64,000 nucleotides of DNA, from the IMG/VR virus record IMGVR_UViG_3300045988_050969. One strand, given 5' to 3'. Below, one piece after another: positions 15,709 through 62,129 of this stretch (position 1 is its first letter; each line of letters starts with the position of its first letter). Origin of the DNA: a virus. The notes under the pieces were generated by a model, which had not been told where the DNA came from, made no database searches, and saw nothing but the letters and a program-made list of their open reading frames with translations. The translations under genes were made by a program, and so were the position numbers.

Positions 15709-16350
15709 TTATTGTTTAGGTAACTCGATTACACGAGTATCAGTTACCTTGATTATTGGGTTACTGTTAACTATCTGATATTTTTTGGTACGTATACGTT
15801 TCCAATCAAAGTGCCAGAACCTAACCCAGCCATTCTTATACTTATTACGATATTCTTTCTTTTCTTCTACAAACAGAATCTGTTGATTCTTAATATCTAA
15901 TGTGGCTTTAAGGATTGAGTCCTTCCTACTAACTATGATAGTTGTTAATGGATTAATTTTAAGTTCTTCGTCAAAATCTATTAACTTGTGTTTTATAATA
16001 GTTCTGACTGAATCTTTAATCTCAGTATTGATTACATTTATATTAGTTAGGTTCTTGTCTTTGATTTTGAGCTTTTTCTAAGCATCCTTGGTTTCTTTTA
16101 ATAAACTATCATTACTAGTATTTAGTTCTTCTATAGTAAGCTATAACACTCTGTTTAACTATTCTTTCTAGGATGCTAATTGCTCGTAAGCTCTAACATT
16201 GTTAGTTATTCTGTCAATCTCTTTATTCTTCTTTTGTAGCTAATGGTTCTAAACAAAAACAGTCGCAATAAGTAAACTAACTAAACCTACTGCGACTGCT
16301 CTGAAATTCCTTGTAAACCAATTAACTAACTAATTCAGTATTGGAATCAT
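15709..16350 (-). CDS. membrane-anchored coiled-coil protein, possible spanin or lysis accessory (TAG-sense)
   Basis: ATG 16348-16350. N-terminal hydrophobic stretch AVAVGLVSLLIATVFV is followed by a long Lys/Glu/Asn-rich helix. At least 7 in-frame TAG; TAA 15709-15711. Length is exactly 214 codons. Adjacent to the holin-like gene. Confidence 0.5.
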
Positions 16351-16831
16351 CTGGTAATTCTTTATCTAATGATATATCTAAATATTTCTCTCCTTTTGCT
16401 TTTATAACCTTTTTGAGGATTTTCCATATTTTCCATTTAGGATATAAGTCGCTAAATGATTCTAGTAACGACCAAAACTCAACTAAGGCTATCATTCCTG
16501 CTACTATTTCTACAGCGTGCAAGTTAATAGAGGTTACTACCAGCTAATCTATTATTGATGCACTAGTTATTGCTACTGCTGCATCTCTAGTCTTCCATAT
16601 AGTTTTCCATGCTTTATGTGATTCAATCTTAGGATGCCCATATTTTTTAGAGACTTTATAACCATAGATAGCATCAAGTAGTATCAATATACCGACAGCA
16701 GTGATAGGAACCCATACAGGTGCGAATATAGAAAGTAGCCCAGTTATAACAGAAGCTACGCATTTATTCGCACTACTGAACATGTTCTTAAATATTGACA
16801 TAGTATGTTCTCCTAATTGTTGGTAATTCAT
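16322..16831 (-). CDS. holin-like multi-pass membrane protein
   Basis: Track ORFs 16544..16831 and 16322..16522 are co-framed and joined by TAG 16544-16546. Several hydrophobic segments (VASVITGLLSIFAPVWVPITAVGILILL; HAVEIVAGMIALVEFW). TAA stop. Confidence 0.5.
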
Positions 16832-16858
16832 AGATAGTAGCTGATAATAAAAATCAAA

Positions 16859-16900
16859 TAAGCCCTGACAGATTAAAAGGGGAGTAAAATCTGAGAGGGC
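16859..16900 (-). terminator. long imperfect hairpin followed by T-rich tract, downstream of the RT gene
   Basis: AGCCCTGACAGATT...AATCTGAGAGGGCT. The minus strand continues TTATTTGATTTTTATT. Confidence 0.5.
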
Positions 16901-16945
16901 TCGAAATTCCGTTTGAGATTATAATTATATAACGATAAGGTTTAT

Positions 16946-17968
16946 TTAAGGTTTCCGTTTTGAAAATCTTCTTGCATAAACTAATAGCTCTTTATAGCGT
17001 AATATTTTCTTTAGTAAGTTGATGCCATTACAATGTTTAAGCCAACCTATATGACTACACATTTCTTGTTTGTAATCTTCTACTGTAATGTTTTTCTTTC
17101 TGCCTAATCTAGCAGCTTTCCTACACATGCTACGCTTAATATTTTTTCTTACTAAAGTATAGTCATGCCTTATTACATAACCTACAAAAGATATACCTCT
17201 GTCTTCTACTTTAAATATCTAATAGTTATCTTTGAAAGTTAATTTTAAAGTATCTAAATACTATTTCATTTCTTCAAACAGTTCTCGTAAATACTCTTTA
17301 TCCTTATGTAGTATTACTATATCATCTGCATATCTGAAGTAATATTTAACCTATTTATCTTCTTTAAGCCAGTGGTCAAAGTAAGTAAGATACAGATTAG
17401 CAAAGAACTAAGATAAGTAATTACCAATAGGTACACCTTCTGCTGAATCTATTATCTCATCTAATAGCTATAATAACTTCTAATCCTTTATCTTCTTTCT
17501 TATTATGCTCTTTAATACTTCATGGTCTATACTAGGATAGAACTTTCTGATATCTAACTTAAGACAATAAGTAGTATTATCTACATCTTTTAAAGCTTCT
17601 TTAACATTATGTAATGCTTCGTGAATACCTCTGTGTTTAATGCAACTATAAGTATCTTTAATAAAGATAGATACCCATATAGGTTCCATTATATTCATTA
17701 CAGCATGATGTACTATTCTATCTGGATAATAAGGTAATCTAAATATTAATCTTTCTTTAGGTTCTCTAATTATAAATGTATTATATTCAGAAGTTTTATA
17801 CGTACCGTTAATTAAATTCTGCTATAGTTTTTTAAGTAATTCTTCTTTATTCTAGTCAAACTCTTTGATATCTTTTCTACTAGATTTATTTCTTCTAGCT
17901 TTCTTATCTGCTAAATATAAATTGTCTAAGCTAACAATCTTATCGAATAAATTATTATATCTCTTCAT
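16946..17968 (-). CDS. diversity-generating retroelement (DGR) reverse transcriptase, 8 in-frame TAG
   Basis: ATG 17966-17968 to TAA 16946-16948 is exactly 341 codons. N-terminus MKRYNNLFDKIVSLDNLYLADKKARRNK. Motif GVPIGNYLS-TAG-FFANLYL corresponds to the DGR-specific [I/L]GxxxSQ, with TAG at the Gln (17408-17410). RYADDIVIL (YADD) at about 17318-17344. Includes track ORFs 17480..17698 and 16946..17128. Confidence 0.85.
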
Positions 17969-18105
17969 AAATAATATTTTCTGAAATACCTTCACGCATC
18001 TTCACTTTCGTTACCAATGCGTTCAAGAAGCATGTCATATTTTACCAAGAGGTAAGGTTCAGCCCTTGATTTTTTGTCAGTTTATAATTTTTTTTACGTA
18101 TTTCA

Positions 18106-18201
18106 GTGTCCTGACATTAGCATTGGAATTGTCTAACTCATTGTTAGAATTCAAATTGAACAAACCTGCATTAGACTCATTGTCTGAGTTACTGCTGATT
18201 T
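18106..18201 (-). repeat. DGR template repeat (TR)
   Basis: About 93 nt align with 18346-18438 at an offset of 238 nt. All 26 mismatches are at plus-strand T, which is A on the coding minus strand of this copy. In the VR frame it is rich in AAT/AAC codons. Confidence 0.85.
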
Positions 18202-18230
18202 ACTCACGACTGCAACCTTTTATTGGTTAA

Positions 18231-20792
18231 TTAAAACCAGTTTTCTTCAGATTCTATAGAATCCAATTGTTCATAATCCTCATCATTTAACTCTAATGTA
18301 GCTGGAGCAGCTGGCAATGCCGGTTCACCATAGAAGGTAATTCGAGTCCCGACACCAGCATCGGAATGGCCCAACCCAGAGTTAGAATCCAAAGAGAACA
18401 AACCCGCAGTAGACCCATTGCCCGAGCAACCGCCGATCAGAAGCGTCCTAGGTGTAGCTGTAGCACTAGTCCAGTGATAATCACAATAATAAGTTGTAGC
18501 ACTAGCTCCATTTCCTACTACAGTTGGGAATAGATCTGCCTAATTATTATTAACGAGTTTTTTTACATATTGACCAGTAATTGTACTTTCTTTAAAGTCT
18601 TGTAATTCATAACCTGCTGCAATTAATTGCTCTGCAGTAGGATTAGTTCCTCCTTCAAATGTACCAAACTTAGTATAATCTTTGCAGATGTATACACTAT
18701 TATCAGTACCAGCAACTACTACATCAATTACATTCTTCCACACATGACCAAATGGATTCTCAATACCACGGTATCTAGGAACATTAACTACCTTAGTACC
18801 AGTAGACGTACCCTCTGCATTAGTATTAGTATGTGTATATTCGATTATACCAGTACCATTACCTAATGAATTAGTAGTACCGCAAGGTACAAATGAATAA
18901 GTAGTAGCTCCATTTACAGTTACAGTTCCTGAAGTTACTCCATCACCCAAACCACCTTGATGATAACCTTCTGCAGTTAAATTAGCATTAAATGCTTTCT
19001 GACTATTCAATGTAGCATATTCTACTACGAATAACCAAGTAAGGTCTCTGTGAGCATCATAAGTATAAATATTCCAGTTGTTAGTTCTATTGTTATTTCT
19101 AGCCATAGTCTGGAATTCTGTTCTAGTTTTGCTTATTATAGGAGCAGTATTACGAACTTGAGTTCTTAATGAATTATTATGACTTGAACTATCTAGATTT
19201 ACACTTCCCTCGTATGCACCGATATATTTCTTCTCTACTTTAGTGTAACCAGGAAGATTGTATTCACTCATACGGATTTCAACTGTATTATCTGGAGTAG
19301 CTATAAGTAATCTATAATGTTCTGGAATTTCTACAAAAGCTTCTACACCAACCCCACTACTATCTTGAGATGAGGTAGTACCGTCTTCCCACTTAGTCCA
19401 GTCGTTTGCTTTTAAGTATTTCTTAGTATTATCCGTATTGCTGATAGTACACCCTCTCATCTTACTCTGGATAGGAAGTGTTTTATGCATTTCCATATTA
19501 CCAGTACGTACACCATCAGGACTAGAGCTATTAGCTAAGTCAAACTTAACTCCATACCACAGTTCATTTTCATTTCTACTAAGCTTACCAATCTCTTCAT
19601 CAAGAGTAACAGCTGCACTTATAGCACTAGGACTATCAGCTAAGTAATTAGTACTTGATAAGTCAGGCATTTCATTAGCTTCAGTTAAACCTACCTTATC
19701 ATTTACTTTAAGTATAGTACTTCTAAGCTCTGTAATATCTTGATTTAAAGCTGTCTCTAAACTGTCAATATTGCCTTGAAGTTCTGTATCCTTAGCTTTG
19801 AGTTCTTTCACTGCATTCTCTCTTGCAACCTTTTCATCATTAATTGCATCAGGAAGAGTTTCATTAATGGCTAACTTTTCAGCACCAGTCATTAAACCAG
19901 CAACAGTATTAGTAGCAGGAGTAATAGTAATATTAGATAAAGTAGACTGTACATATTTACCGCCGCTCTTTTCTACTCCAGTAAGACTGATAGTAATGTT
20001 ATTAACATCTGTCTGATCTAACTGGAATGTACTTAATAAATTATCTGGCATAGAGTTAACTACATTCTCCATAGCTTTACCCTTACCGCCATCATAAGCA
20101 GTACCAGTAATATCGCCAATGATAATGGCATTAGAATCAATGTGTACCCATTGTGAACCAGACCATCTAAATTGATAGCTTACTTCACCAGGAGTTACAT
20201 TAACATATATTTTATCTCTTTCACCTACTATAGGAGTTTCGTGTTCAGCATCTGCATATAACTGTATATTCTAAAGTACTCCAGTAGGAGATACAGTATA
20301 AGTAGCATATGCATCCATCACATCATCAACATATGAAGGCAATTGACTAGCAGGTACTTTACCATTACCATCAAGTTCAGCAAGACCATTAGGTTGACCT
20401 TTTAATGCTTTGAAGTCCTGTAAGTCTTCATTCACATCATCAATCTTAGTATCCAGTCTATCTACTTGAGCTTTTACAGCAGCATCACCTTTATTAATAG
20501 CATCTACTATACTAGTACCTTTAAAGTAGTTATTACTACTATTATCAGGTAAAGATATAATATCACTATTCTTATCATAGTTTAAACCAACAGATTGTAC
20601 AATCTCTTTAATATGAGTCCATTGGTCTACATTAGCATCTCTGTTTAACGGTATCCACTTCTTAAGATCAGGACTATATGACTTAATAACATTACCAGTA
20701 CTATCTGTTGCTAAGTCAATCCAGTAAGAAACCTCTTTAGGATTTGGAGCATACTTAGATGCTATGAAATTAGGATTTTCTTGTTTAACCAT
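18231..20792 (-). CDS. tail fibre / receptor-binding protein, DGR target (853 aa, TAG-sense)
   Basis: Track ORFs 20271..20792 and 18540..20072 are co-framed and joined by TAG. TAG 18540-18542 is read through for 103 more codons to TAA 18231-18233. Total is exactly 854 codons. Carries the fibre motif GKVPASQLPSYVDDV; the C-terminus carries the VR. Confidence 0.8.
18344..18439 (-). repeat. DGR variable repeat (VR) inside the 3' end of the tail-fibre gene
   Basis: Partner of the TR. It differs only where the TR has A. Encodes LIGGCSGNGSTAGLFSLDSNSGLGHSDAGVGTR, located 35-70 codons before the TAA at 18231. Confidence 0.85.
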
Positions 20793-20890
20793 ATTTGCAA
20801 ATATTTAATAATTAAATAATCTCCTGTTCTGGAGTATCGTATTCTTTCTATCTCGTATATTCATCATTGAAATATACAATATTGTTTTCA

Positions 20891-21985
20891 TTATGTTATT
20901 GGATTTAATGCTACAACTTGACCAGCTTCAGTCTTATCAAAGTAATTAACTACAGCAAATTCCTCATCTGCTGCCTAACCGTCTCTACTGCTTACATAAC
21001 TCCTAATAAACTGCTGACCTCTCTTTTCACTATTACCTGCTACGTATCCGTATCGAAATGCAGTATCTATAGTAGGATGATATATGGTTCCGTCTTCATT
21101 CATAGCGATTACTTTAATCTATCCTTCTTCAGCCATAGTATTAGTATTAAGACACCTAACAGAACCTGTTATTATATTCCCATCTATGTTTGTCTAATTA
21201 TTCCATGTCTTATACTACTTACCGTTGAATGTAACATAACCATTAACCGAAGTACTTAAAGTGCCTTTAAACGTAAAATCTCTTTGTATAGTTAGATTGG
21301 GCATACCTTCCACACTATCGTCTACAGGATTAATTTTATAATATCTATTAGTATTTGTTCCATCCACGTGTATGACCGTTTCTCCAACCCATATTTTATT
21401 AGGCATACCTTCTTCATACACCCAACCATCTTTATCAGCGAATACAAATGATTGACCTGTTACTCCCATATCACTACCCTTCATTTGATACGCTTTTACT
21501 ATAACTCCTCCTTTATAAGCAGTACATTCAACAGTCACAATACCGTCATTTTTATTTCCAAACCAGTTTCCTCTAAGCTATACAATTAACTATTCCGGCA
21601 TAGTTAAACTAGGATCATTAGTATATACATCTTGTATGGATTTAATGTCTACCATTACACACTCTGCTCCAGATTGAGTGTTATCGCCTCCCCAGTATAA
21701 AAACGGTTGAGTTCTATTTTCAGACGAACCCCAATTCCATCCTACTATTTCACTAGGGATACTAGGAGCGTTAGTGATGTTAGTACCGGTATCAAAATCT
21801 CTACCGTTAGAATCAGTCCATATGAATCTCAACTATATACTATTGAAATCATAGAAGTAAGCTACATCATCCCTAGTAGGCCATATGTGACTCTAACCAT
21901 CAAATACATCAGATATATTAGTATTGCCTACGGTTCTCTTTTGTAGGGGAACTGCTCGTCCCCCTGCTATACCTAACTCTAACAT
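20891..21985 (-). CDS. tail fibre / receptor-binding candidate (364 aa, TAG-sense)
   Basis: Track ORFs 21590..21832 and 21215..21538 are co-framed. TAG at 21215-21217, 21833-21835 and others. ATG 21983-21985 overlaps the upstream TAA. TAA stop at 20891-20893. Confidence 0.55.
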
Positions 21986-22605
21986 TATTCACTCTCCTCA
22001 TCAATAATATTATAAGTCATACCTGCTACTTTAGTAAGCTGATTATATTCAGCTTCAGTACCAGTCCATATAGGTAATGATATCTTACCATTATTAGCAC
22101 TAGGTAACGCTAAAACAACGCCAGTACCTTTGTTCATTGCCTGTTGTACTGGATCTAATACAGATATCTTATTCTCACGAATCAGTTTATTTATTAACTG
22201 AGTAATGTACTCTTCATCAAGCAGCTCACCAACATTACCAAGATTATTTTCAATACTAGTAATCTTATTGTTAATGCTAGTTATGTTCTGCTCAATATCA
22301 TTTATACTAGATTCAAGATTAGTAATTCTATTATTAACAGTAGTTATCTTACTATCTAAGTTATTTATCTTATTAGTAAGTTCTGATATACTTTGGTTAA
22401 CTTCATTCTTGAAATCCCCTACTGAAGATTCTATAGTAGCATCTATATAGTCTTTAATTCTATCATCATTAATTACTAAATCAACAATCTAGTTTATAGG
22501 AGCTTTATAGTTATGTTCCTTTTCAGCTACAACCATGTATTCACTACCTTCAAGATTGCGCTTAGGATCTAGCTCCAATATCTTTATGCCATCACATTTA
22601 TTCAT
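21985..22605 (-). CDS. tail fibre protein with conserved N-terminal anchor domain and coiled coil (206 aa)
   Basis: ATG 22603-22605; TAA 21985-21987. N-terminus MNKCDGIKILELD...GSEYMVVAEKEHNYKAPI is paralogous to the N-terminus of 30360..33644. One TAG. Confidence 0.55.
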
Positions 22606-22610
22606 AACTA

Positions 22611-23516
22611 TTACTCTTTAAAGAATCCACTAGGAGCACTTACTTTATTAAATACTACACTATCAGTAGTAGCTAATGATAATTGAGCTCTAGTAACTAC
22701 ATGAGGATTATCTCTTCTAGCTGCATGGGTATCAATAGCATTTTGTGCATTAGTAATCAATTGTTTAAGCTCATTAATTTGGGATTGCAGATTATTATCT
22801 GCATTAGTTCTATTTTCAATCTCTTGATTAATTAACTCAGTAAGATCGGTAACTTTACTATCTACGTAAGTCTTAAGTTCATTCTTAGCCTTAGTAATCT
22901 CACTATTTATATAGCTTCTTAAATCACCAATCTATTGGTCTATTTTACTATCTAACTCTTGTATATTCTGAGTTAATTCAGTAATCTTTTGTTGAATAGA
23001 ACTTAAATCCCCACCTATTACTTCAGTTATATCTTGACGTATCTCTTCAATATTAGAATTGATATTAGTAATATCTTGATTTATATCATCAATGTTATTA
23101 TTGATATCTGTAATATCCTACTTGATATTATTAACATCACCTTTGATGTCATTAATCTCATTTCTAATATTACTAATCTAAGTAGTTAACTCTTCTACTT
23201 TCTGATTAATATACTACCACAGTTTATTAACTTCCTCTTTCAGTTCATCTTTAAATTCAGCTAATTCATTTCTGATTTCAGTTATAGCTTCATTAATAAA
23301 CTGTTCTATCTAATCAAGAGCTCTATTAATATAATCAATGATAGCATCTACTTGCTTATCATTCAGATCTAGCATCTCCCATGTATTAGTATCATTACGA
23401 TAATACCTAATACAACCACCATAGTAATTAGATGTAACGTCAATCCAATAATCTACTTCTAGAGGATTAGGCTACGTATCTGATGCTCTAAATCTAACTA
23501 TCTCTCTCTGTAACAT
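22611..23516 (-). CDS. coiled-coil tail fibre protein (301 aa, TAG-sense)
   Basis: ATG 23514-23516; TAA 22611-22613. About 7 in-frame TAG. N-terminal motif EVDYWIDVTSN resembles EVSYWIDLATD in 18231..20792. Long Asn/Ile/Glu heptad region. Confidence 0.55.
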
Positions 23517-48345: not shown

Positions 48346-48382
48346 TGCTATTGTAATTTCAAAGGACTAGTGTTTTAATTTG

Positions 48383-48454
48383 TCCTCCTACCATAGAATC
48401 GAACTCGGACTTACGGGGCTAGAATCCGTCGTGCTGCCACTACACCATAGGAGA
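48383..48454 (-). tRNA. amber suppressor tRNA, anticodon CUA (Gln-like)
   Basis: Minus strand: TCTCCTA TG GTGT AGTGGCA GCAC G ACGGA TTCTAGC CCCGT AAGT CCGAG TTCGATT CTATGG TAGGAGG A. The 7-bp acceptor includes U1-G72. The D arm carries GG. The anticodon loop is UU-CUA-GC. The T-loop is TTCGATT. Imperfections: an A31-C39 mismatch and one bulged A in the T stem. The UUCU.. loop and CCGAG-TTCGA T arm resemble bacterial tRNA-Gln (from memory). Confidence 0.75.
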
Positions 48455-56176: not shown

Positions 56177-56329
56177 GATATACAGATTTATTCGCAAAGT
56201 AATTATTCTATGAAATGCAAATTATCCTCATATGTTGTGAAACATAATTTAACCACGTTAAAGTATAATAATATAAGTTAGGTATGCCCTTATAAAGACT
56301 TAGGTAGCGCTAAGGACTATATTATTATA

Positions 56330-56720
56330 CTTCTCTTCTTAATGCAGCCGAGTGCCGGTGACAAGCCCGACAGAATGCAGAGTCAAGAAAAATAATTTAT
56401 TATCATTATTACGCATTCTATGCACAAGAAATGTAGTAGTTGAGAAGATGATAGATTATAATCCACGTGGTAGATGCAGTTGTAGGTTCCAACTGGTGCA
56501 CATCTTTTAGAGACAGTAACCAAGCTCGAAGTAAGCAGAGCGAAGATAGAAGCTATACCTTGATAGGCTTAATGAGGTGCTTAACAGTCTGACACTAACT
56601 GAACAATAAGTGTCCTCAGTTCCGGGTGAGTAAAGTGAATGTGGAATATATCGGACTACAGCCTCGAAGAAAGGTTCCACCAAGTATGTCAAAACTTGAG
56701 TAGAAAGTTGTACTATAACC
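56330..56720 (+). ncRNA. GC-elevated structured non-coding segment (candidate large ncRNA)
   Basis: About 390 nt without an ORF and with many local helices, e.g. GATG-CAGTTG-TAGGTTC-CAACTG-GTGCA-CATC at about 56471-56502. AGGTTCC and CTCGAAG motifs recur. Confidence 0.35.
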
Positions 56721-56873
56721 AAAAGTATAACAGACTTAATAGAGTAAGAGAATAGAAATGTGTATATCTACGTAGTTCATAGCATAGCTTATAATCGTAT
56801 AATGCAACATCGATTATATTAATGCGCTTACTCTATTATTTTTATTGCATTAACTAACAAATAAATCAATTAT

Positions 56874-57104
56874 ATGGAAACAAAAGTAATACTGTTTATT
56901 ATTCATCTAACATTAGGTATAATTAGTGGTATAATCTATCTAATATACTGTTATAAAAAATACGAGGTATTGACATTAGCAGATGCAATAGCATCTTTAT
57001 TAATGTTATTTGGATGGCCAATTGTTCTATTAGCTTTATCTAGTCATTACTTTTTACTTTTTATGAGTAATCTTGAAGAGATTAGAATATTAGAGAAAAA
57101 ATAA
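56874..57104 (+). CDS. small membrane protein (76 aa)
   Basis: Intact track ORF with two hydrophobic helices. Preceded by TAACTAACAAATAAATCAAT. Confidence 0.55.
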   Translation: METKVILFIIHLTLGIISGIIYLIYCYKKYEVLTLADAIASLLMLFGWPIVLLALSSHYFLLFMSNLEEIRILEKK

Positions 57105-57124
57105 CTAATAAATAATATCAAATT

Positions 57125-57553
57125 ATGAAGAAAATAACTTGTATTCAGAATTATGTAATAGATAAGCTTATTGAAGACGAGAAATTATCTACAAATAGTC
57201 TATTAGATGCAATATCCAAAGTATGTTCAAAGGAACAATTTGATAATATACTATCTATTCTTATAGAAACACCTATTCCTTGTACAAATATGCCTGAATT
57301 AGAAAGTAAAACAAGCTTAGTAGGAATAAGCATGTTTATACCTGAAGAAGTTAGTGGTTCTACTAAAATAGAGATAATAAAAATAATAAAAGACCAATTT
57401 GGTCTTCGTCTTGGACAAGCTAAAGAATATGTAGATAGTTGCATAGGGAAATACGGTATGGTTCCTAAGGTTGTTGCACAAGAAGAAGTAGATATTATTA
57501 CCGAAAAATTAAAACCTTACCATGTAAGTGTATCTATAGTAGGATTTTATTAA
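57125..57553 (+). CDS. protein with ribosomal L7/L12 C-terminal-domain-like region (142 aa)
   Basis: KIEIIKIIKDQFGLRLGQAKEYVDS...VAQEEVDIITEKLKPYHVSVSIV parallels bL12 CTD [25 protein letters not shown]...[22 protein letters not shown] (E. coli sequence from memory). Confidence 0.6.
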   Translation: MKKITCIQNYVIDKLIEDEKLSTNSLLDAISKVCSKEQFDNILSILIETPIPCTNMPELESKTSLVGISMFIPEEVSGSTKIEIIKIIKDQFGLRLGQAKEYVDSCIGKYGMVPKVVAQEEVDIITEKLKPYHVSVSIVGFY

Positions 57554-57559
57554 AAGTTA

Positions 57560-57580
57560 ATGCAGTAAATATTACTGCAT
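57560..57580 (+). terminator. perfect 9-bp hairpin after 57125..57553 (terminator or processing site)
   Basis: ATGCAGTAA-ATA-TTACTGCAT, 7 nt after the stop. No T-tract. Confidence 0.4.
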
Positions 57581-57583
57581 CTA

Positions 57584-57790
57584 TACTGTGAGAATCAGTA
57601 TCAACTTTGTGGGGCTTATATTTAGACAATGTATGATAATAGTTGCAAATGTTATTATATAATCTAATATTAGTGCAGATGAAATCAAAGATAGTTCGTA
57701 TTTGCGGTATTGCGGGATACGAACAAGTCAAGTCATTATAAGACTGGGTAGCGTAATACAAAAAATCCTAGCTGACCTGTAGCTAGGTAT
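57584..57790 (+). ncRNA. structured repeat unit a
   Basis: TACTG-TGAGAAT-CAGTA hairpin, TGTGGGGCTTATA box (57608-20), TAGTGCAGATGAAATCAAAG box (57671-90), GTTCGTAT...ATACGAAC helix, and CCTAGCT-GACCTGT-AGCTAGG hairpin. Confidence 0.45.
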
Positions 57791-57794
57791 CTTT

Positions 57795-57990
57795 AAGGTG
57801 AGAATCCTTGACAATCCTGTGGGGCTTATATCTATCAAAAGAACTTACAGCAGCTTTTATATTAGCTTAGCTGGACTTTATGATAGTATTAGTGCAGACG
57901 TTAAAATCAGGAACAACTACATCATTACTAACAATATTATCGGTCACAAGTCTAACGACAATATGATGTAGCCAAGTTTGTTCGTCCTTA
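57795..57990 (+). ncRNA. structured repeat unit b
   Basis: AAGG-TGAGAAT-CCTT hairpin (same loop as unit a, different stem), TGTGGGGCTTATA (57818-30), TAGTGCAGACGTTAAAATCAGG (57890-911), and CTACATCAT...ATGATGTAG 9-bp helix. Confidence 0.45.
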
Positions 57991-58238
57991 GATTTACAGT
58001 ATCAGCCATTTGTTTATTTAATCATTGTTCGTTCTTAATTATACAGATTGATTAATTAAGCATAACAGTAAGCGTACTGTTGTCAGTATATTTATATGTG
58101 AATATAGATATACTGATTGCACTCAAAAGCTGGCCTTCACGTGGCGAGTGTGTTAAGTAATAGGTCTAAAAAATCTTCCAGTTTTACCTATGAAAACTAA
58201 CAGCTACCTTTTTATTAACTTTAATAACTATCAAAAAT

Positions 58239-58424
58239 ATGTATAAAAAACTATCAAATTTAAATGTTGGAGATATATTCCAATATGGAGACACTATATA
58301 TGAAATAGTAGAAAAAGGAGTATGGCATGCAAAATGCAAGTATATTAATGAAACTCCTAAATCGGAATATTCACCTGAATATTTATTTATAAATTTTAGT
58401 CTTTATACTCGAGTTAAAGTTTAA
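58239..58424 (+). CDS. hypothetical small protein (61 aa)
   Basis: Intact track ORF with a TAA stop. Confidence 0.55.
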   Translation: MYKKLSNLNVGDIFQYGDTIYEIVEKGVWHAKCKYINETPKSEYSPEYLFINFSLYTRVKV

Positions 58425-58435
58425 TAATTTTAAAT

Positions 58436-58519
58436 GCCCAGATGTTGAAATAGGTAGACAATCCACACTTAAACTGTGGTGACCATTTGGTCGTGCGGGT
58501 TCGACTCCCGCTCTGGGTA
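58436..58519 (+). tRNA. tRNA-Leu, anticodon UAA (type II, long variable arm)
   Basis: GCCCAGA TG TTGA AATAGGTAG ACAA T CCACA CTTAAAC TGTGG TGACCATTTGGTCGT GCGGG TTCGACT CCCGC TCTGGGT A. Canonical cloverleaf with a 15-nt variable arm. Confidence 0.85.
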
Positions 58520-58551
58520 CAATTAGTAATTAACATTAAAATCAATTTAAT

Positions 58552-58851
58552 ATGAAAGAAGAAAAACTTACAAGATTAAAAATTCTAAGAGTAATGTCAT
58601 ATGATCTCTTACACTTCCTTATGAGGGAAAAAATACTTAGTGTATTTCTAACTGAATGCTTAAACAATAGCTATTCCTGGGTTCTTAAAAACAGAATAGA
58701 ACAAGGAATATTTCAAAATCGAAGTATTACATTACATGATATGTATGAATTTGAAAATTATTTCACATTTAGTGTGTCTACTACTTTTACTGAAAGTGCT
58801 TGGTGGAGATATGCATTTAAATATAGGGAGGAGTATTCATGGAAAGTCTAA
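58552..58851 (+). CDS. hypothetical protein (99 aa)
   Basis: Intact track ORF. Confidence 0.6.
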   Translation: MKEEKLTRLKILRVMSYDLLHFLMREKILSVFLTECLNNSYSWVLKNRIEQGIFQNRSITLHDMYEFENYFTFSVSTTFTESAWWRYAFKYREEYSWKV

Positions 58852-59150
58852 ATAGTATTACTAAATATATAGTAGGTGCTATAATATTTGTATTTATACT
58901 TATGTGGATAGCTGACAAGCTATTTATTGCGCATGTTAATACTGCTACAGAGTTTTTAGATAATTATAAGAATTATATAATAATAAGAAAAGATAAAGGT
59001 ATAAATGATTATATACTTACTATTAAAAATCCTTATACTCAAGATATTAGGTATCGAATTACTAATGTAACTGTTCCTTCTGGATTATGGTATAATTATT
59101 CTATAGGAGATACTATTGGTAAGAAAAAGCAGATATATTTTAATCAATAA
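58839..59150 (+). CDS. hypothetical membrane-anchored protein (103 aa)
   Basis: Intact track ORF with an N-terminal hydrophobic helix. Confidence 0.6.
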   Translation: MESLNSITKYIVGAIIFVFILMWIADKLFIAHVNTATEFLDNYKNYIIIRKDKGINDYILTIKNPYTQDIRYRITNVTVPSGLWYNYSIGDTIGKKKQIYFNQ

Positions 59151-59162
59151 AAGTAAGTAGTT

Positions 59163-59531
59163 ATGAAAAGAGAAGAAATTAAATCTTACAAAGATGCCTG
59201 CAAAGTAATAGGTAGAAAACCTAGAACTTATAAAGATAAGCATCTAAATCTGTATGAACAGCTTAGTACAATTACAGCTGCTCTGAACTTTATTAGTAAT
59301 AATAACAAACCTTGGAAACCTAAGTTTGATTATTATTATATCTATTCTTGGTTATACAGAAAAGATGGATATAATAAATCTGCGGGTTTGTTCTCTTTGG
59401 CTTCTCGCAATGGGTTGGACGATTCCCTTGCTCATGTCGGGACTTCTCTGAAGATAAAAGAAAGAGAGGATGGAAATTACATAATAGAAAACTTTAAAGA
59501 ACTACTCCAAGATTGGTTTTGGGGAAATTAA
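59163..59531 (+). CDS. hypothetical protein (122 aa)
   Basis: Intact track ORF. Confidence 0.6.
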   Translation: MKREEIKSYKDACKVIGRKPRTYKDKHLNLYEQLSTITAALNFISNNNKPWKPKFDYYYIYSWLYRKDGYNKSAGLFSLASRNGLDDSLAHVGTSLKIKEREDGNYIIENFKELLQDWFWGN

Positions 59532-59557
59532 TTACTAATTTTAAAAACATTATCAAA

Positions 59558-60016
59558 ATGGAAAATGAAATGATGGCGAGACCCGAACCGCCAAGAAGAA
59601 CTGTTTGGGTAATAGTAGCAATCATTGCCTTAATAGGCATGTTTGGAGCAATGATTTATGCAGAGCGTGAAAACATTGCTAATTTCTTAAATGGTGTGAA
59701 CCAAGAAGAAGTACAAGAAGATCCTCAAGTTATCATTGAGGAACCTGTAACAACAATACAGGATATTCTCGATATGAGAGAGCAAATGAGAGAAGATAGA
59801 AGAGTTGACAGTGTATTTTTAGCTATGCCAAAGGTAGTATTAATTGATATTTTGATGCAGCATGGTACATCATTGTCTATAAAAGACATGATTTACATAT
59901 ATGAATCAAACACATCAACGTACAACACAGTATTATCTGGAGCAAGAGCTCAAAAATATCTTGATGATTCTATAAAAACTAGTCCCTTACCAACGGTTGT
60001 AAACGACTCTATTTGA
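59558..60016 (+). CDS. hypothetical membrane-anchored protein
   Basis: ATG-initiated part of track ORF 59513..60016 (MENEMMARPEPPRRTVWVIVAIIALIGMFGAMIY...). TGA stop. Confidence 0.6.
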   Translation: MENEMMARPEPPRRTVWVIVAIIALIGMFGAMIYAERENIANFLNGVNQEEVQEDPQVIIEEPVTTIQDILDMREQMREDRRVDSVFLAMPKVVLIDILMQHGTSLSIKDMIYIYESNTSTYNTVLSGARAQKYLDDSIKTSPLPTVVNDSI

Positions 60017-60060
60017 AATTAAAACTAAACCTTCTTTCTGTTTTAAATGAATATTAGAGT

Positions 60061-60400
60061 CTAGTATACTCAGTCTGTGAAGATAGAGTATACGTCCTCA
60101 GAAAATGACAAGCATGTGGGGCGTAAGTATATACAGTAGGTTATCGTTTATCCTCATTTATACAGGTTAATTGCGCAACTGTAAAAAACGGGATTGATAG
60201 AATAGATGGTATATATGATCGTGCGGACGTTAAAATCATGTACTCCAATAAGATTTAGTTTGACAGCTACTTCTGCTTATGAGTTAAAACTATAGTGAGA
60301 GTCATAGTAAGTAACGATTGTGGTCGTTTATCTTTGTCTTATAACAAATGCTATAAACCCAGTAGTTGGCACTAACTTAATTAAATCCTGAGTGCCCAGG
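60061..60400 (+). ncRNA. structured repeat unit c (diverged relative of units a/b)
   Basis: GTATACTC-...TGTGAAGATA-GAGTATAC hairpin, TGTGGGGCGTAAGTATA (60114-30), and CGTGCGGACGTTAAAATCATG (60220-40). No ORF. Confidence 0.4.
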
Positions 60401-60432
60401 CGTCATTATTAATCAATTTAAACGTTTAGATT

Positions 60433-60696
60433 ATGGGAATATTATCAAAATTAACCAGAACAATGCGTATTAGAAAAATACGCAGAGAAGCTAGGCAAAA
60501 AGCTTATGAAGCATTGTGCCTGTCACCATTAAAATACTCTAGAGCAATTGCTGAAATAGATTGTATTATTGATGGTCACAAATGGAGTAGTGAATTTGAT
60601 CCTAAAAAGGAAATAGCTAAAGGCACTACTAAGAGAGCATATTGCAAACATTGTGGAGTATACTATCATACTCACACTTATAAAGAAGATATATGA
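60433..60696 (+). CDS. hypothetical protein (87 aa), C-terminal CxxC
   Basis: Intact track ORF. Confidence 0.6.
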   Translation: MGILSKLTRTMRIRKIRREARQKAYEALCLSPLKYSRAIAEIDCIIDGHKWSSEFDPKKEIAKGTTKRAYCKHCGVYYHTHTYKEDI

Positions 60697-60920
60697 AAAA
60701 ATTAAGTAATGGATACCTAGAGACAAAATTTAAAGTATTCCGTCGTAGTGATGATACTATGGTAGACGAAACAGAAGCTTATATTAAAATAGACTCTATA
60801 GTAGGAATATGTAGAAGTATTAAAAGTAATACTACAGATATAATACTTGCAAGTGGAGATAGGTATACAACTACAGAGAATTTTGAGGATTTCTGCATAG
60901 ATTTTTTTAAAGAAAATTAA
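60693..60920 (+). CDS. hypothetical protein (75 aa)
   Basis: Intact track ORF with an ATGA overlap with the previous gene. Confidence 0.6.
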   Translation: MKKLSNGYLETKFKVFRRSDDTMVDETEAYIKIDSIVGICRSIKSNTTDIILASGDRYTTTENFEDFCIDFFKEN

Positions 60921-60944
60921 TTTTAATCAATAAAACTTAAACAA

Positions 60945-61343
60945 ATGAAACTTTTAATTATTGGATTTAAAGATGGAGTTAATGATGAACTCATCGAAAA
61001 TGGTGTACTTGCTCTTCAAGGTATAATGGGAATAGATGTTAAAGCTACTATCTATACTGAAGATGAATTTCTACCTACTAACAAAAATAAGAAATCTATT
61101 CGTAAGAGCGATTTTATGATTGCTATAGAAAAGATTATTGAGGTATGTGGAGAAGAATCAGATAGTATAGCTTTCCGTAGTTCTTTTTATACTCTTGTCT
61201 TGAAAGGAGTAATAGAGAGACCTATTCTTGAAGTACTATCATATGGTCCTAAAACTAACAGAGATCTTGAATTCCTTTCTAAAAGAAAAGAAATGGAAAA
61301 TATTGTAGAATATGCTCGCGTAGCTTTATCAATGATTTCATAA
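60945..61343 (+). CDS. hypothetical protein (132 aa)
   Basis: Intact track ORF. Confidence 0.6.
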   Translation: MKLLIIGFKDGVNDELIENGVLALQGIMGIDVKATIYTEDEFLPTNKNKKSIRKSDFMIAIEKIIEVCGEESDSIAFRSSFYTLVLKGVIERPILEVLSYGPKTNRDLEFLSKRKEMENIVEYARVALSMIS

Positions 61344-61468
61344 TGGGAAAGACATTCAAAGATAGTAATTATACCATGAAATATGGTAATACTAAAAAAA
61401 CAAGATCACGTAGAGCTAAGTTACAGCCTTATGATCGTAAAGCTAGAGACTATGAGACTGATAAGTAA
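61343..61468 (+). CDS. possible small basic protein (41 aa)
   Basis: TAATG overlap with the previous stop. MGKTFKDSNYTMKYGNTKKTRSRRAKLQPYDRKARDYETDK. Confidence 0.35.
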   Translation: MGKTFKDSNYTMKYGNTKKTRSRRAKLQPYDRKARDYETDK

Positions 61469-61640
61469 TCAAAAACTTAAAGCAACAGTAAATAATCGTT
61501 TAAAGAACGATTGTCCGTTACAATGTAATAAAAAACATTGTGATGTATGTCAATTCAGAAATGACAAATCTGAATCGATTCCAACAGTAACTACTAATAC
61601 TCCTTCGCCAGAGGTATACGGTAGAGATATGTATTATTAA
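61452..61640 (+). CDS. small Cys-containing protein
   Basis: ATG-initiated distal part of track ORF 61383..61640 (MRLISNQKLKATVNNRLKNDCPLQCNKKHCDVCQF...). Confidence 0.45.
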   Translation: MRLISNQKLKATVNNRLKNDCPLQCNKKHCDVCQFRNDKSESIPTVTTNTPSPEVYGRDMYY

Positions 61641-61860
61641 CCCTAAACAAGTTAGTATGGTGCAGTCAACCCAGAACTATTATTATCAACCAGACCCCTA
61701 ATGGAAGCTTAGTAACAACTAAGCTTACTAAGCAAGAGTACAATGGACTATACAACGGTCAACCAGTATCTAATATTGGTTTAAGATGAAGGAAAAGGGT
61801 TGCCTATGAATAAGAGATACGAATAAGTAGGATAGTAGTTCTTTTAAAGAAATTAAAGAA

Positions 61861-62129
61861 ATTGACTGTTAGGTCTATTGAATCGTCGTTTGGACGAGGG
61901 TTCGACTCCCTCATGCTCCACTAATAATAAACTGTATGAAAAATAAAGAAAGAACTTGGCTTGAAGCTATTTTCTATGCTATGTTTGCTGTAGGTATCAC
62001 AGGTACTATAATACTTATAATTGGGGCATTATGGTTTTGACAGCGATATAAGAAGAAATAGAATAGGTCAATAAGCAGATAACTGGCAATACAAGTTATG
62101 TTATGAACTATAGCCGTATTGCGGCGTAA
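61861..62129 (+). ncRNA. tmRNA-like element with permuted (3' half upstream of 5' half) tRNA-like domain
   Basis: 61896-61920 reads GAGGG TTCGACT CCCTC ATGCTCC A, i.e. T arm, 3' acceptor strand and discriminator. 62023-62029 GGGGCAT pairs with 61913-61919 over 7 bp including G3-U70. This is followed by TATGGTTTTGACAGCG. P2-like pairings: 62044-47/61882-85, 62057-62/61874-79, 62067-72/61861-66. A short frame ends ...NYSRIAA-TAA (62127-29). Confidence 0.55.
61936..62040 (+). CDS. possible 34-aa hydrophobic peptide (overlaps the tmRNA-like 5' strand)
   Basis: MKNKERTWLEAIFYAMFAVGITGTIILIIGALWF. This is a competing interpretation of the same sequence. Confidence 0.3.
   Translation: MKNKERTWLEAIFYAMFAVGITGTIILIIGALWF

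Follow-up and report, generated by a model that had tools for sequence, protein, structure and literature searches.

The prototype diversity-generating retroelement (DGR), that of Bordetella phage BPP-1, is arranged as mtd, avd, template repeat (TR), and the reverse transcriptase (RT) gene brt. The locus described here, in a 64,000-nt stretch of viral DNA (the window, by which we mean that stretch at its full length), resembles it in several ways: the two RTs are full-length homologues (E = 6.8e-45), mutagenesis acts specifically on adenines, AAY codons are abundant in the TR, a variable repeat (VR) lies near the 3' end of a gene for a receptor-binding-type tail protein, and the RT gene follows the TR after a spacer of about 140 nt. 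Unlike BPP-1, the window has no Avd that we could find, two targets, and 37 codons after the VR. Also, its repeats share a short 3' boundary rather than a 35-bp IMH, and no downstream hairpin was detected.

Other described systems share other parts of this arrangement. The DGRs of crAssphage LMMB (Intestiviridae) and of lineage 3 in Wu et al. 2018 (PMC7290462, PMC5758913) have the same order of target, VR, TR, and RT, lack avd, and have a tail-fibre-type target in a Bacteroidales phage. The RT in the window is 51% identical to the lineage-3 RT of LMMB. In contrast to LMMB, the phage in the window belongs to another crAss family, its RT and target are TAG-recoded, and it has a second, non-adjacent target. 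RT genes that are interrupted by TAG, and so are hidden from standard DGR finders, have been described for Zeta crAss-like phages (PMC12386605), which are a different family; as in the window, GxxxSQ is kept. A single TR with two VRs is known from the Bacuni phages (PMC8143477) and from the tentaclin phages nd4 and nd12 (PMC10743442). One target of the Bacuni phages is distant in the genome, and the second VR of nd4 is shorter than the first, and both are true of the window as well. However, both targets in the Bacuni and tentaclin phages are adhesin or receptor-binding-type proteins (and the Bacuni phages have Avd), whereas the second target in the window, a protein of 122 aa that lacks a family annotation, is encoded on the opposite strand among TAG-free genes.

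The most similar locus that we compared is in cr53_1 (NC_055889.1; Suoliviridae, Blohavirus), which has 94.8% nucleotide identity to window positions 16000-23000. Both cr53_1 and cr115_1 (NC_055898.1) have the same gene order as the window, an RT that is 97% identical, and a 122-aa second target. Their records list a 'Reverse transcriptase (intron)' and a 'tail protein similar to ... major tropism determinant', with no TR or VR annotated, and the second target is a 'hypothetical protein'. The order of target, TR, RT, and holin is kept in five RefSeq genomes of Suoliviridae from three subfamilies. (The record of cr115_1 is split inside VR1, and its annotation there runs RT and then holin only.) This kind of DGR is already known in the phage family, and the element that was flagged first is, on its own, confirmatory. 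The accessible part of the text of Yutin et al. 2021, which others cite for the DGRs of Suoliviridae, contains no DGR term. The second target had gone unremarked and is under-described, and it recurs in several other Bacteroides-type phages.

The virus in the window is a TAG-recoded gut crAss-like phage of the Suoliviridae. We propose, with a probability of roughly 90%, that it carries an avd-less DGR that diversifies two genes. The parts are as follows.

16946 to 17968, minus strand: DGR reverse transcriptase, 340 aa, with eight in-frame TAG codons and the motifs PIGNYLS(TAG)FF and YADD
17969 to 18107, minus strand: spacer of 139 nt from the TR to the RT start codon, a candidate 3' part of the DGR RNA
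18042 to 18056, minus strand: hairpin CTTACC-TCTT-GGTAA within the spacer, about 77 nt before the RT start
18108 to 18200 (maximal 18106-18201), minus strand: TR, non-coding, with 33 adenines and 10 AAY codons in the VR frame
18231 to 20792, minus strand: target gene 1, an 853-aa tail (receptor-binding-type) protein, an open reading frame with TAG read through
18345 to 18354, minus strand: candidate IMH-like 3' boundary of VR1, in the sense direction TGTCGGGAC(T), where the TR has TGTCAGGAC(A)
18346 to 18438 (maximal 18344-18439), minus strand: VR1, which encodes IGGCSGNGSTAGLFSLDSNSGLGHSDAGVG
48382 to 48454, minus strand: suppressor tRNA with anticodon CUA, directly upstream of the recoded late-gene block
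59163 to 59531, plus strand: target gene 2, an open reading frame for a 122-aa protein with no family annotation and no in-frame TAG
59381 to 59443, plus strand: VR2, equivalent to TR sense positions 31-93 (the 3' 63 nt), in the same codon register as VR1

Adenine-specific differences between TR and VR1

The TR begins 30 nt past the stop codon of target gene 1 and ends 139 nt ahead of the RT start, which places it between these two genes. It aligns to VR1 over 93 nt without gaps, as a preliminary description of this DNA had reported. That description counted 26 mismatches, all of them where the TR copy has T on the plus strand, and hence A on the coding minus strand. We count 23, and every one is at such a position (on the sense strand, 16 A>G, 4 A>C, and 3 A>T). 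As 33 of the 93 positions are adenines, the probability that all 23 mismatches would hit an adenine by chance is 2.5e-14. The repeat pair grows to 96 nt when it is extended through A-type mismatches only. The TR was also said to have asparagine at 11 of 31 codons, which is not correct: 10 of the 30 full codons in the VR frame are AAY. The peptide that VR1 encodes had been given correctly, and VR1 is indeed near the 3' end of the gene, at 37-68 codons before the stop rather than 35-70.

TAG codons in the RT and other late genes

Translation of the RT and of target gene 1 needs a tRNA-CUA, and the phage itself encodes one (found by ARAGORN, with an Rfam tRNA match of 37.7 bits). Its counterpart in cr53_1 is at the same position, is annotated as tRNA-Gln, and also has CTA in the anticodon loop (the sequences are about 30% different). 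Besides the eight in-frame TAG codons in the RT, there are 96 across eleven other minus-strand late genes; terminase, portal, structural genes, and all other late genes contain them. The three tabulated plus-strand genes have none. The RT is the most TAG-dependent gene among those examined, with TAG at 8 of its 10 glutamine positions. One of these is in a signature motif: the IGxxxSQ and YADD motifs that were claimed for the RT are both there, the former as VPIGNYLSqFF, and its Q is a TAG codon. The same invariant Q is encoded by TAG in three RTs from Suoliviridae. The tRNA-CUA, the TAG codon at the motif Q, and the presence of in-frame TAG in late genes with none in the tabulated plus-strand genes support TAG being read as sense in the late genes, presumably as glutamine.

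Target gene 1 has two in-frame TAG codons (20271-20273 and 18540-18542). Hence, the 853-aa fibre gene and the RT gene stand as first described only if TAG is a sense codon; under code 11 both are fragmented. The preliminary description had applied TAG read-through silently. Recoded phages are missed by DGR finders that use the standard code, and in this case the RT would be in pieces and its signature Q would be a TAG.

Recent activity of the element

The TR is identical among the window, cr53_1, and cr115_1. In contrast, their copies of VR1 differ at 17-25 sites, and every one of these sites is a TR adenine. The preliminary description had suggested a check for population-level variation, which we approximated by comparing assembled genomes, not reads; it came out as predicted, with VR1 variation concentrated at A sites and a conserved TR. 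Across 21 distinct related genomes, the polymorphic sites were 1 of 93 in the TR, 30 of 33 at the A sites of VR1, and 5 of 60 at its other sites. Variation at the A sites of VR1 with an essentially invariant TR implies that the element has been active recently. As far as can be judged from the genomes compared, the variation shows recent activity in the lineage, rather than in this particular genome.

Another explanation is that the pattern is a record of past activity and that this genome's element has since fallen silent, for example because the RT, with its eight TAGs, is untranslated. Under the standard code, the RT is indeed broken into fragments of 60 and 72 aa, and the VR variation is seen between assembled genomes. 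Also, incomplete or decayed cassettes have been reported from other crAss-like groups (PMC7290462, PMC11054128). However, all of the other late genes contain TAG too, and the tRNA-CUA is encoded. Furthermore, the RT frame is intact and is 97% identical in relatives. Finally, the flanks are about 98% identical among these genomes, and yet nearly every genome differs in VR1 and VR2 while the TR is strictly conserved. Differing VRs and a conserved TR within nearly identical flanks require recent and repeated homing, and we consider a silent element to be improbable.

A second target

VR2, at 59381-59443, had been missed by the preliminary description. We found it with a scan for partial matches; a search for the TR pattern over the full 93 nt misses it. 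The same kind of scan gave no third VR in the window or in 100 kb of cr53_1 (there are exactly two in each). VR2 spans codons 74-94 of the 122 codons of target gene 2, which is located in a TAG-free block of small genes on the opposite strand, 41 kb from the TR. Over 64 aligned positions (59380-59443), all 15 mismatches between VR2 and the TR are at TR adenines (P = 3.4e-10).

VR2 is hypervariable at these sites as well. In a set of 49 distinct orthologues, polymorphism occurs at 19 of 21 A sites and at 17 of the 43 remaining sites, and the mean minor fraction is 0.40 at the A sites, 0.017 at the non-A sites, and 0.03-0.05 in the remainder of the open reading frame. Non-A differences account for 35 of the 762 VR2 mismatches among relatives, and TR variants explain some of these.

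Could VR2 instead have arisen when recombination or gene conversion copied a segment of VR1 or the TR, which then came under diversifying selection without ever being a direct recipient? VR2 matches just 63-66 nt of the TR and is on the opposite strand, 41 kb off, with no adjoining hairpin that we could find. But it differs almost solely at TR adenines (in the RefSeq relatives, 12 of 12 and 11 of 11 differences; among the orthologues, polymorphism at 19 of 21 A sites against a minor fraction of 0.017 elsewhere). Also, the part that is shared is anchored at the 3' end, as homing from an IMH predicts, and VR2 is no more similar to the VR1 of its own genome than to the VR1 of other genomes. Moreover, the same arrangement, with a match to the genome's own TR, is present in six further genomes with differing TRs. 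A copied VR2 therefore seems even less probable than a silent element, and we favor VR2 as a second recipient of the DGR.

In cr115_1, the homologue of target 2 is likewise a remote DGR target on the opposite strand. In cr60_1, cr52_1, cr56_1, LoVEphage, and PV4-TP1, the homologue carries a remote opposite-strand VR that matches the TR of its own genome. Overall, the two-target arrangement is found in at least seven further genomes, including that of a cultured temperate Phocaeicola phage, so that what DGRs diversify besides receptor-binding proteins becomes experimentally testable.

We also considered whether the VR1 and VR2 of one genome might have the same sequence, as if for the same ligand, but we rejected this idea. 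Identity at variable sites is 0.25 within genomes and 0.32 between them, which implies that the two repeats have diversified independently.

Type of reverse transcriptase

The RT matches RVT_1 (E = 2e-19) and phrog_1423 (E = 1.1e-123). Its best match in the PDB is Brt of Bordetella phage BPP-1 (8ub7); group II intron and retron RTs match it at 3.8e-17 or worse. (A literature search for PDB code 8UB7 found no paper, and we confirmed that the chain is brt by tblastn against phage records.) Its motifs and its best solved relative support placing the RT with the DGR clade. With the hallmarks of a DGR that are testable from sequence all present, the original reading of the locus as a DGR is supported.

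It is very hard to believe that the RT derives from a group II intron or retron and has nothing to do with the repeat, as might be suggested by the RefSeq note 'Intron reverse transcriptase' and the best NCBIfam model (group_II_RT_mat, 131.9 bits): the cut-off for that model is 300 bits (and retron_St85 scores 60.3 against a cut-off of 235), BPP-1 Brt leads the other solved relatives by 28 orders of magnitude, the SQ motif is of the DGR type (introns typically have SP), no RNA family of group II introns or retrons turned up in the window, and an adenine-specific repeat is directly upstream of the RT.

Spacer, 3' boundary, and Avd

By analogy with the Sp region of BPP-1, the spacer is a candidate for the 3' part of the DGR RNA, and it may have a role in priming. 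The TR and spacer together fold better than shuffled sequence (z = −3.35). The hairpin in the spacer is at the same place in all relatives, and its middle pair is A-U in the lineage of the window (74 loci) and G-C in a lineage whose RT is 74% identical (33 loci). This one covarying pair weakly favors the hairpin.

VR1 and VR2 share the same short, GC-rich block at their 3' ends (GTCGGGAC), where the TR has GTCAGGAC. The A in GTCAGGAC is replaced by G in 23 of 23 copies of VR1 and in 51 of 53 copies of VR2. This block might act as an IMH. No hairpin or cruciform downstream of VR1 or VR2 scored better than shuffled sequence.

The preliminary description called the DGR complete, which holds only in the sense of an avd-less element. 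The target, the TR, and the RT have no open reading frame between them, and a comparison of 20 small open reading frames of the window with Avd-type families gave no match at E ≤ 1 (the search covered these small open reading frames, and the genome continues for ~36 kb beyond the window). To our knowledge, Avd is essential in the only DGR that has been studied biochemically. Avd is not universal, and it is absent from the lineage-3 DGRs (PMC5758913, PMC7290462).

Proposed mechanism

We take the outline of the mechanism from the established model of DGRs. A late transcript from the minus strand would carry target gene 1, the TR, the 139-nt spacer, and the RT gene. The RT would be translatable only when tRNA-CUA reads its eight TAGs, so it is presumably made late in infection. 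Its dependence on TAG would thus tie mutagenesis to a late, suppressor-dependent phase of infection. The RT would then copy the TR RNA into cDNA, with misincorporation opposite adenines in the template, and the cDNA would replace a homologous VR, with the GC-rich 3' end that they share as the anchor. The first recipient would be the 853-aa tail protein, in its C-terminal region (VR1, 93 nt, beside the TR). The second would be the 122-aa protein, 41 kb off on the opposite strand (VR2, which takes the 3' 63 nt of the TR).

The two recipient proteins

Both recipients may bind ligands. Target 2 matches phrog_11581 (unknown function, E = 7.7e-07), and its family has 670 clusters at 90% identity, each of about 122 aa and on a contig of about 100 kb. 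It resembles the VR-bearing end of target 1 in residues 51-99 only (hhalign probability of 88-93%). An AlphaFold2 model of the 122-aa protein was too poor to use (pLDDT of 52.5), and a search of PDB profiles with the small protein from LoVEphage gave only chance matches. In LoVEphage and PV4-TP1, the homologue is located among genes for DNA methyltransferase, restriction alleviation, and DNA metabolism.

We speculate, although we rate this as unlikely, that the 122-aa protein is an early intracellular binder rather than an adhesin of the virion and that it is diversified in parallel to the tail fibre. Such a binder could, for example, neutralise variable host defences or other proteins of the host. 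In that case, DGRs of phages would take part in a second, intracellular arms race, and unrelated Bacteroidales phages would have conserved the dual-target design. It would also have been missed by large surveys of DGRs, as these could not detect remote targets (PMC8144416).

Target 1 matches phrog_5302 ('tail protein', E = 9.9e-85), and its orthologue in cr53_1 is annotated in RefSeq as 'tail protein; similar to sulfatase, major tropism determinant'. A C-type lectin (FGE-like) fold, which the preliminary description predicted for its C-terminus, is a candidate for the display of the variable region. We found nothing relevant for target 1 in Pfam or NCBIfam, and searches of PDB profiles with shallow and diverse alignments gave only chance matches. 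The AlphaFold2 model of its homologue P0121 (96% identical; 38 sequences) was too poor to use, with a pLDDT of 30.6. The C-terminal module of target 1 (about 410 aa) recurs in 1469 representative clusters, at C-termini behind varied N-termini. Among 60 distant homologues, one matches FGE-sulfatase in Pfam and one matches Fib_succ_major. The consensus of the family ends in ...GSRLCF, which resembles CLec3 VRs, and the window has VGTRITF.

The repeat pair and its reverse transcriptase

The element is a genuine diversity-generating retroelement (DGR), as the preliminary description had proposed, and it has been recently active. Its main parts, all on the minus strand, are:

16946-17968, minus strand: reverse transcriptase (RT), 340 aa
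18108-18200, minus strand: template repeat (TR)
18231-20792, minus strand: target 1, a tail protein of 853 aa
18346-18438, minus strand: variable repeat within target 1 (VR1)

As had been claimed, the two repeats align without gaps over 93 nt, and every mismatch (23 of 23) falls where the first copy has T on the plus strand and thus adenine on the coding strand. The earlier count of 26 mismatches was too high: we recounted 23 (on the coding strand, from TR to VR1, 16 A>G, 4 A>C, and 3 A>T). Adenines occupy 33 of the 93 TR positions, and the chance that all 23 mismatches would fall there is P = 2.5e-14. In the VR frame, AAY codons make up 10 of 30 TR codons, not 11 of 31. The VR peptide, the GKVPASQLPSYVDDV motif of target 1, and the RT motifs IGxxxSQ and YADD were all found, and VR1 lies 37-68 codons ahead of the target-1 stop. 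Beyond VR1, the tail protein runs on for 37 codons (ITFYGEPALPAAPATLELNDEDYEQLDSIESEENWF; 18231-18343, minus strand) into an acidic tail; most of its diverse homologues end directly after the VR.

For the RT, we found matches to Pfam RVT_1 (E = 2e-19) and phrog_1423 (E = 1.1e-123). Among solved structures, the RT is closest to chain 8ub7_A (E = 6.8e-45), a 100% match to the brt product of Bordetella phage BPP-1; the RTs of group II introns, retrons, and defence systems come next, at E = 3.8e-17 or worse. We find no support for the RefSeq note 'Intron reverse transcriptase', because the RT reaches 131.9 bits with the NCBIfam model for group II introns, whose cut-off is 300. We found no avd gene in the cassette, and no match to an Avd-type family in 20 small ORFs of the window. 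This absence is in keeping with lineage 3 of Wu et al., which is avd-less, and with the cassette of crAssphage LMMB (PMC5758913, PMC7290462), whose RT is 51% identical to the window's.

Target 1 matches phrog_5302, 'tail protein' (E = 9.9e-85). Its C-terminal ~410 residues are a module that recurs in 1469 representative clusters, where the N-termini vary and the module is almost always C-terminal. The families FGE-sulfatase and Fib_succ_major each match only one of 60 distant homologues of target 1. PDB profile searches for the C-type lectin-like fold that had been predicted for target 1 gave no match.

Dependence on TAG recoding

Under the standard bacterial code, this region is a patchwork of short ORFs. 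Reading TAG as sense restores long minus-strand genes across ~3.2-47.9 kb (3252-47899), among them the RT with 8 in-frame TAG codons and the 853-aa protein with 2. All of the long late genes in this block use TAG as a sense codon (2-19 per gene), and directly upstream of the block lies a tRNA with anticodon CUA (48382-48454). Window positions 16000-23000 are 94.8% identical to the RefSeq genome 'CrAssphage cr53_1' (Crassvirales, Suoliviridae). That record labels the two genes 'Reverse transcriptase' and 'tail protein; similar to sulfatase, major tropism determinant', and it lists the equivalent tRNA as tRNA-Gln. The Q of IGxxxSQ directly supports the reading of TAG as glutamine: it is a TAG codon in the window's RT and in two other Suoliviridae RTs.

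The RT has the highest TAG dependence among the genes examined, with 8 TAG vs. 2 CAA/CAG codons, compared to 96 vs. 272 in eleven other late genes (Fisher p = 7e-4). Given this TAG load, RT synthesis could be restricted to the suppressor-dependent late phase. The suppressor tRNA is ~30% different from the one at the same position in cr53_1 (locus L090, 6664-6738), while the DGR region is 95% identical, so the genomes are mosaic.

Recent activity across related genomes

The window, cr53_1, and a second RefSeq relative, cr115_1, share an identical TR. Their VRs have 17-25 pairwise differences, each on a TR adenine, and the flanking DNA is 95-99.6% identical. Scanning IMG/VR with the TR gave 25 loci, and we compared 21 distinct sequences (the window and cr53_1 among them). 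Only 1 of 93 TR sites is polymorphic in this set. In VR1, 30 of 33 adenine sites are polymorphic (mean minor fraction 0.38), as are 5 of the 60 other sites (mean minor fraction 0.005); the flanks are at 0.02-0.03. The preliminary description had called for a search for variation limited to TR-adenine positions, and this is the variation that we see, between assemblies rather than reads. The comparison shows that mutagenic homing has been recent and repeated in the window's lineage.

The RefSeq record of cr115_1 (NC_055898.1) is linearised within VR1, its two ends overlap by 55 nt, and its DGR target gene is unannotated. Either the TR/VR repeat or VR heterogeneity appears to have broken the assembly at this point.

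Relation to published elements

Elements of this kind have been described before, and RefSeq already contains a 95%-identical genome. Among crAss-like phages, DGRs have been published for the Intestiviridae (PMC7290462), epsilon (PMC11054128), and zeta (PMC12386605) groups, and the Suoliviridae are said to have DGR cassettes (PMC11054128). Amber-suppressed RT genes, and the trouble that they cause for myDGR, have also been reported (PMC12386605). Targets that are not adjacent to the cassette are known generally within phage genomes (PMC5758913): Bacuni phages have one, with both targets adhesin-like (PMC8143477), and cassettes with two targets occur in tentaclin phages (PMC10743442). Remote targets were undetectable in the largest DGR survey (PMC8144416). 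In the literature that we surveyed, we found no description of this lineage's TR/VR pair or of the small-protein family described below as a DGR target. What our analysis adds is, first, a second target that is remote, conserved, and a small protein of unassigned function; second, the RT's strong dependence on TAG; and third, two smaller unexplained regularities, an AG-context bias and a spacer hairpin.

A second, remote target

59163-59531, plus strand: target 2, a 122-aa ORF that encodes the peptide AGLFSL...VGTS
59381-59443, plus strand: second variable repeat (VR2), which corresponds to the TR's 3' 63 nt and shares the codon register of VR1

Across 64 aligned positions (59380-59443), all 15 mismatches between VR2 and the TR are on TR adenines (P = 3.4e-10). 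Similarly, relative to the window's copy of this stretch, 12 of 12 differences in cr115_1 and 11 of 11 in cr53_1 are at TR-adenine sites. Among 49 distinct IMG/VR orthologues, 19 of 21 adenine sites in VR2 are polymorphic (minor fraction 0.40), compared with a minor fraction of 0.017 at the remaining VR2 sites and 0.03-0.05 elsewhere in the ORF. The protein forms 670 clusters at 90% identity in the protein collection, all of ~122 aa, and this count itself reflects the hypervariability of target 2. In a partial-match scan, the window has two VRs and no more, and 100 kb of cr53_1 likewise have only two. Each VR is rewritten independently, as VR1 and VR2 are no closer within one genome (likeness 0.25) than between genomes (0.32).

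The target-2 gene is 41 kb from the cassette and on the opposite strand. It contains no TAG codons and lies in a TAG-free block of small genes flanked by self-cleaving ribozymes. Two orthologues (loci L049 and L079) have TGG to TAG changes, at codons 63 and 51, in an otherwise TAG-free gene, and the gene is frameshifted in a further relative. Suppressible amber codons, decay, or errors in sequencing could account for these changes.

Target 2 matches phrog_11581, a family without an assigned function. Homologues at 30-40% identity occur in further Suoliviridae members and in two unrelated temperate Bacteroides phages, LoVEphage and PV4-TP1; the latter has Phocaeicola vulgatus BM8 as its host and carries its VR1 in gp23. 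In every genome checked that has both the RT and a small-protein homologue, the homologue has a VR that fits the TR of the same genome, and this VR and the cassette lie on opposite strands:

cr60_1: 66 nt
cr52_1: 68 nt
cr56_1: 68 nt
LoVEphage: 115 nt
PV4-TP1 (gp58): 115 nt

The LoVEphage-type protein (194 aa) retains a 25-residue segment (...RLVLWGGTANNGAY). The Suoliviridae versions are missing this segment, which is why their VR2 spans just the 3' two-thirds of the TR. The small protein resembles the tail protein only in the ~50 residues that end the VR region, and its N-terminal part is unrelated. In LoVEphage and PV4-TP1, its gene neighbours encode a DNA methyltransferase, a Lar-like restriction-alleviation protein, a PAPS-reductase, and recombination functions. 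AlphaFold2 models from shallow alignments had pLDDT of 52.5 for the 122-aa protein and 30.6 for a homologue of the tail protein.

Boundary block, spacer hairpin, and base context

At the 3' end, both VRs have GTCGGGAC and the TR has GTCAGGAC. The G of the VR block is present in 23 of 23 VR1 copies and 51 of 53 VR2 copies. This difference is a candidate for IMH/IMH*, the 3' boundary blocks of VR and TR, but the block is short. Downstream of VR1 and VR2, we found no hairpin above chance.

18042-18056, minus strand: conserved hairpin (CTTACC-TCTT-GGTAA) in the 139-nt TR-RT spacer, fixed at ~77 nt from the RT start

In a lineage whose RT is 74% identical, this hairpin reads CTTGCC...GGCAA, which is one compensatory change from A-U to G-C; it is missing from the LoVEphage spacer. 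The BPP-1 spacer RNA offers an analogy for a possible role of this hairpin.

We scored TR adenines followed by G (sense positions 5, 8, 16, 24, 34, 63, 67, and 89) in both VR1 and VR2. The base at these sites is G in 94% of VR copies for the window's lineage and in 81% for a second lineage of the TR, and the sites include three synonymous third-codon positions (TCA, GCA, and TTA). At the adenines of the TR's AAY codons, all four bases are seen. The bias suggests either context-dependent misincorporation or a requirement for G at the DNA level.

Structured RNAs are densely clustered on the plus strand at 56185-62129, and the block of small genes with target 2 lies between Hatchet copies:

56185-56335, plus strand: RAGATH-6
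56392-56615, plus strand: RAGATH-7
57579-57690, plus strand: Hatchet ribozyme
57789-57912, plus strand: Hatchet ribozyme
60094-60241, plus strand: Hatchet ribozyme
61662-61842, plus strand: RAGATH-9
61874-62129, plus strand: permuted tmRNA

A 142-aa ORF (57125-57553, plus strand) matches the C-terminal domain of ribosomal protein L7/L12 (PF00542, E = 6e-06, just over the gathering score), which is unusual in a phage gene.
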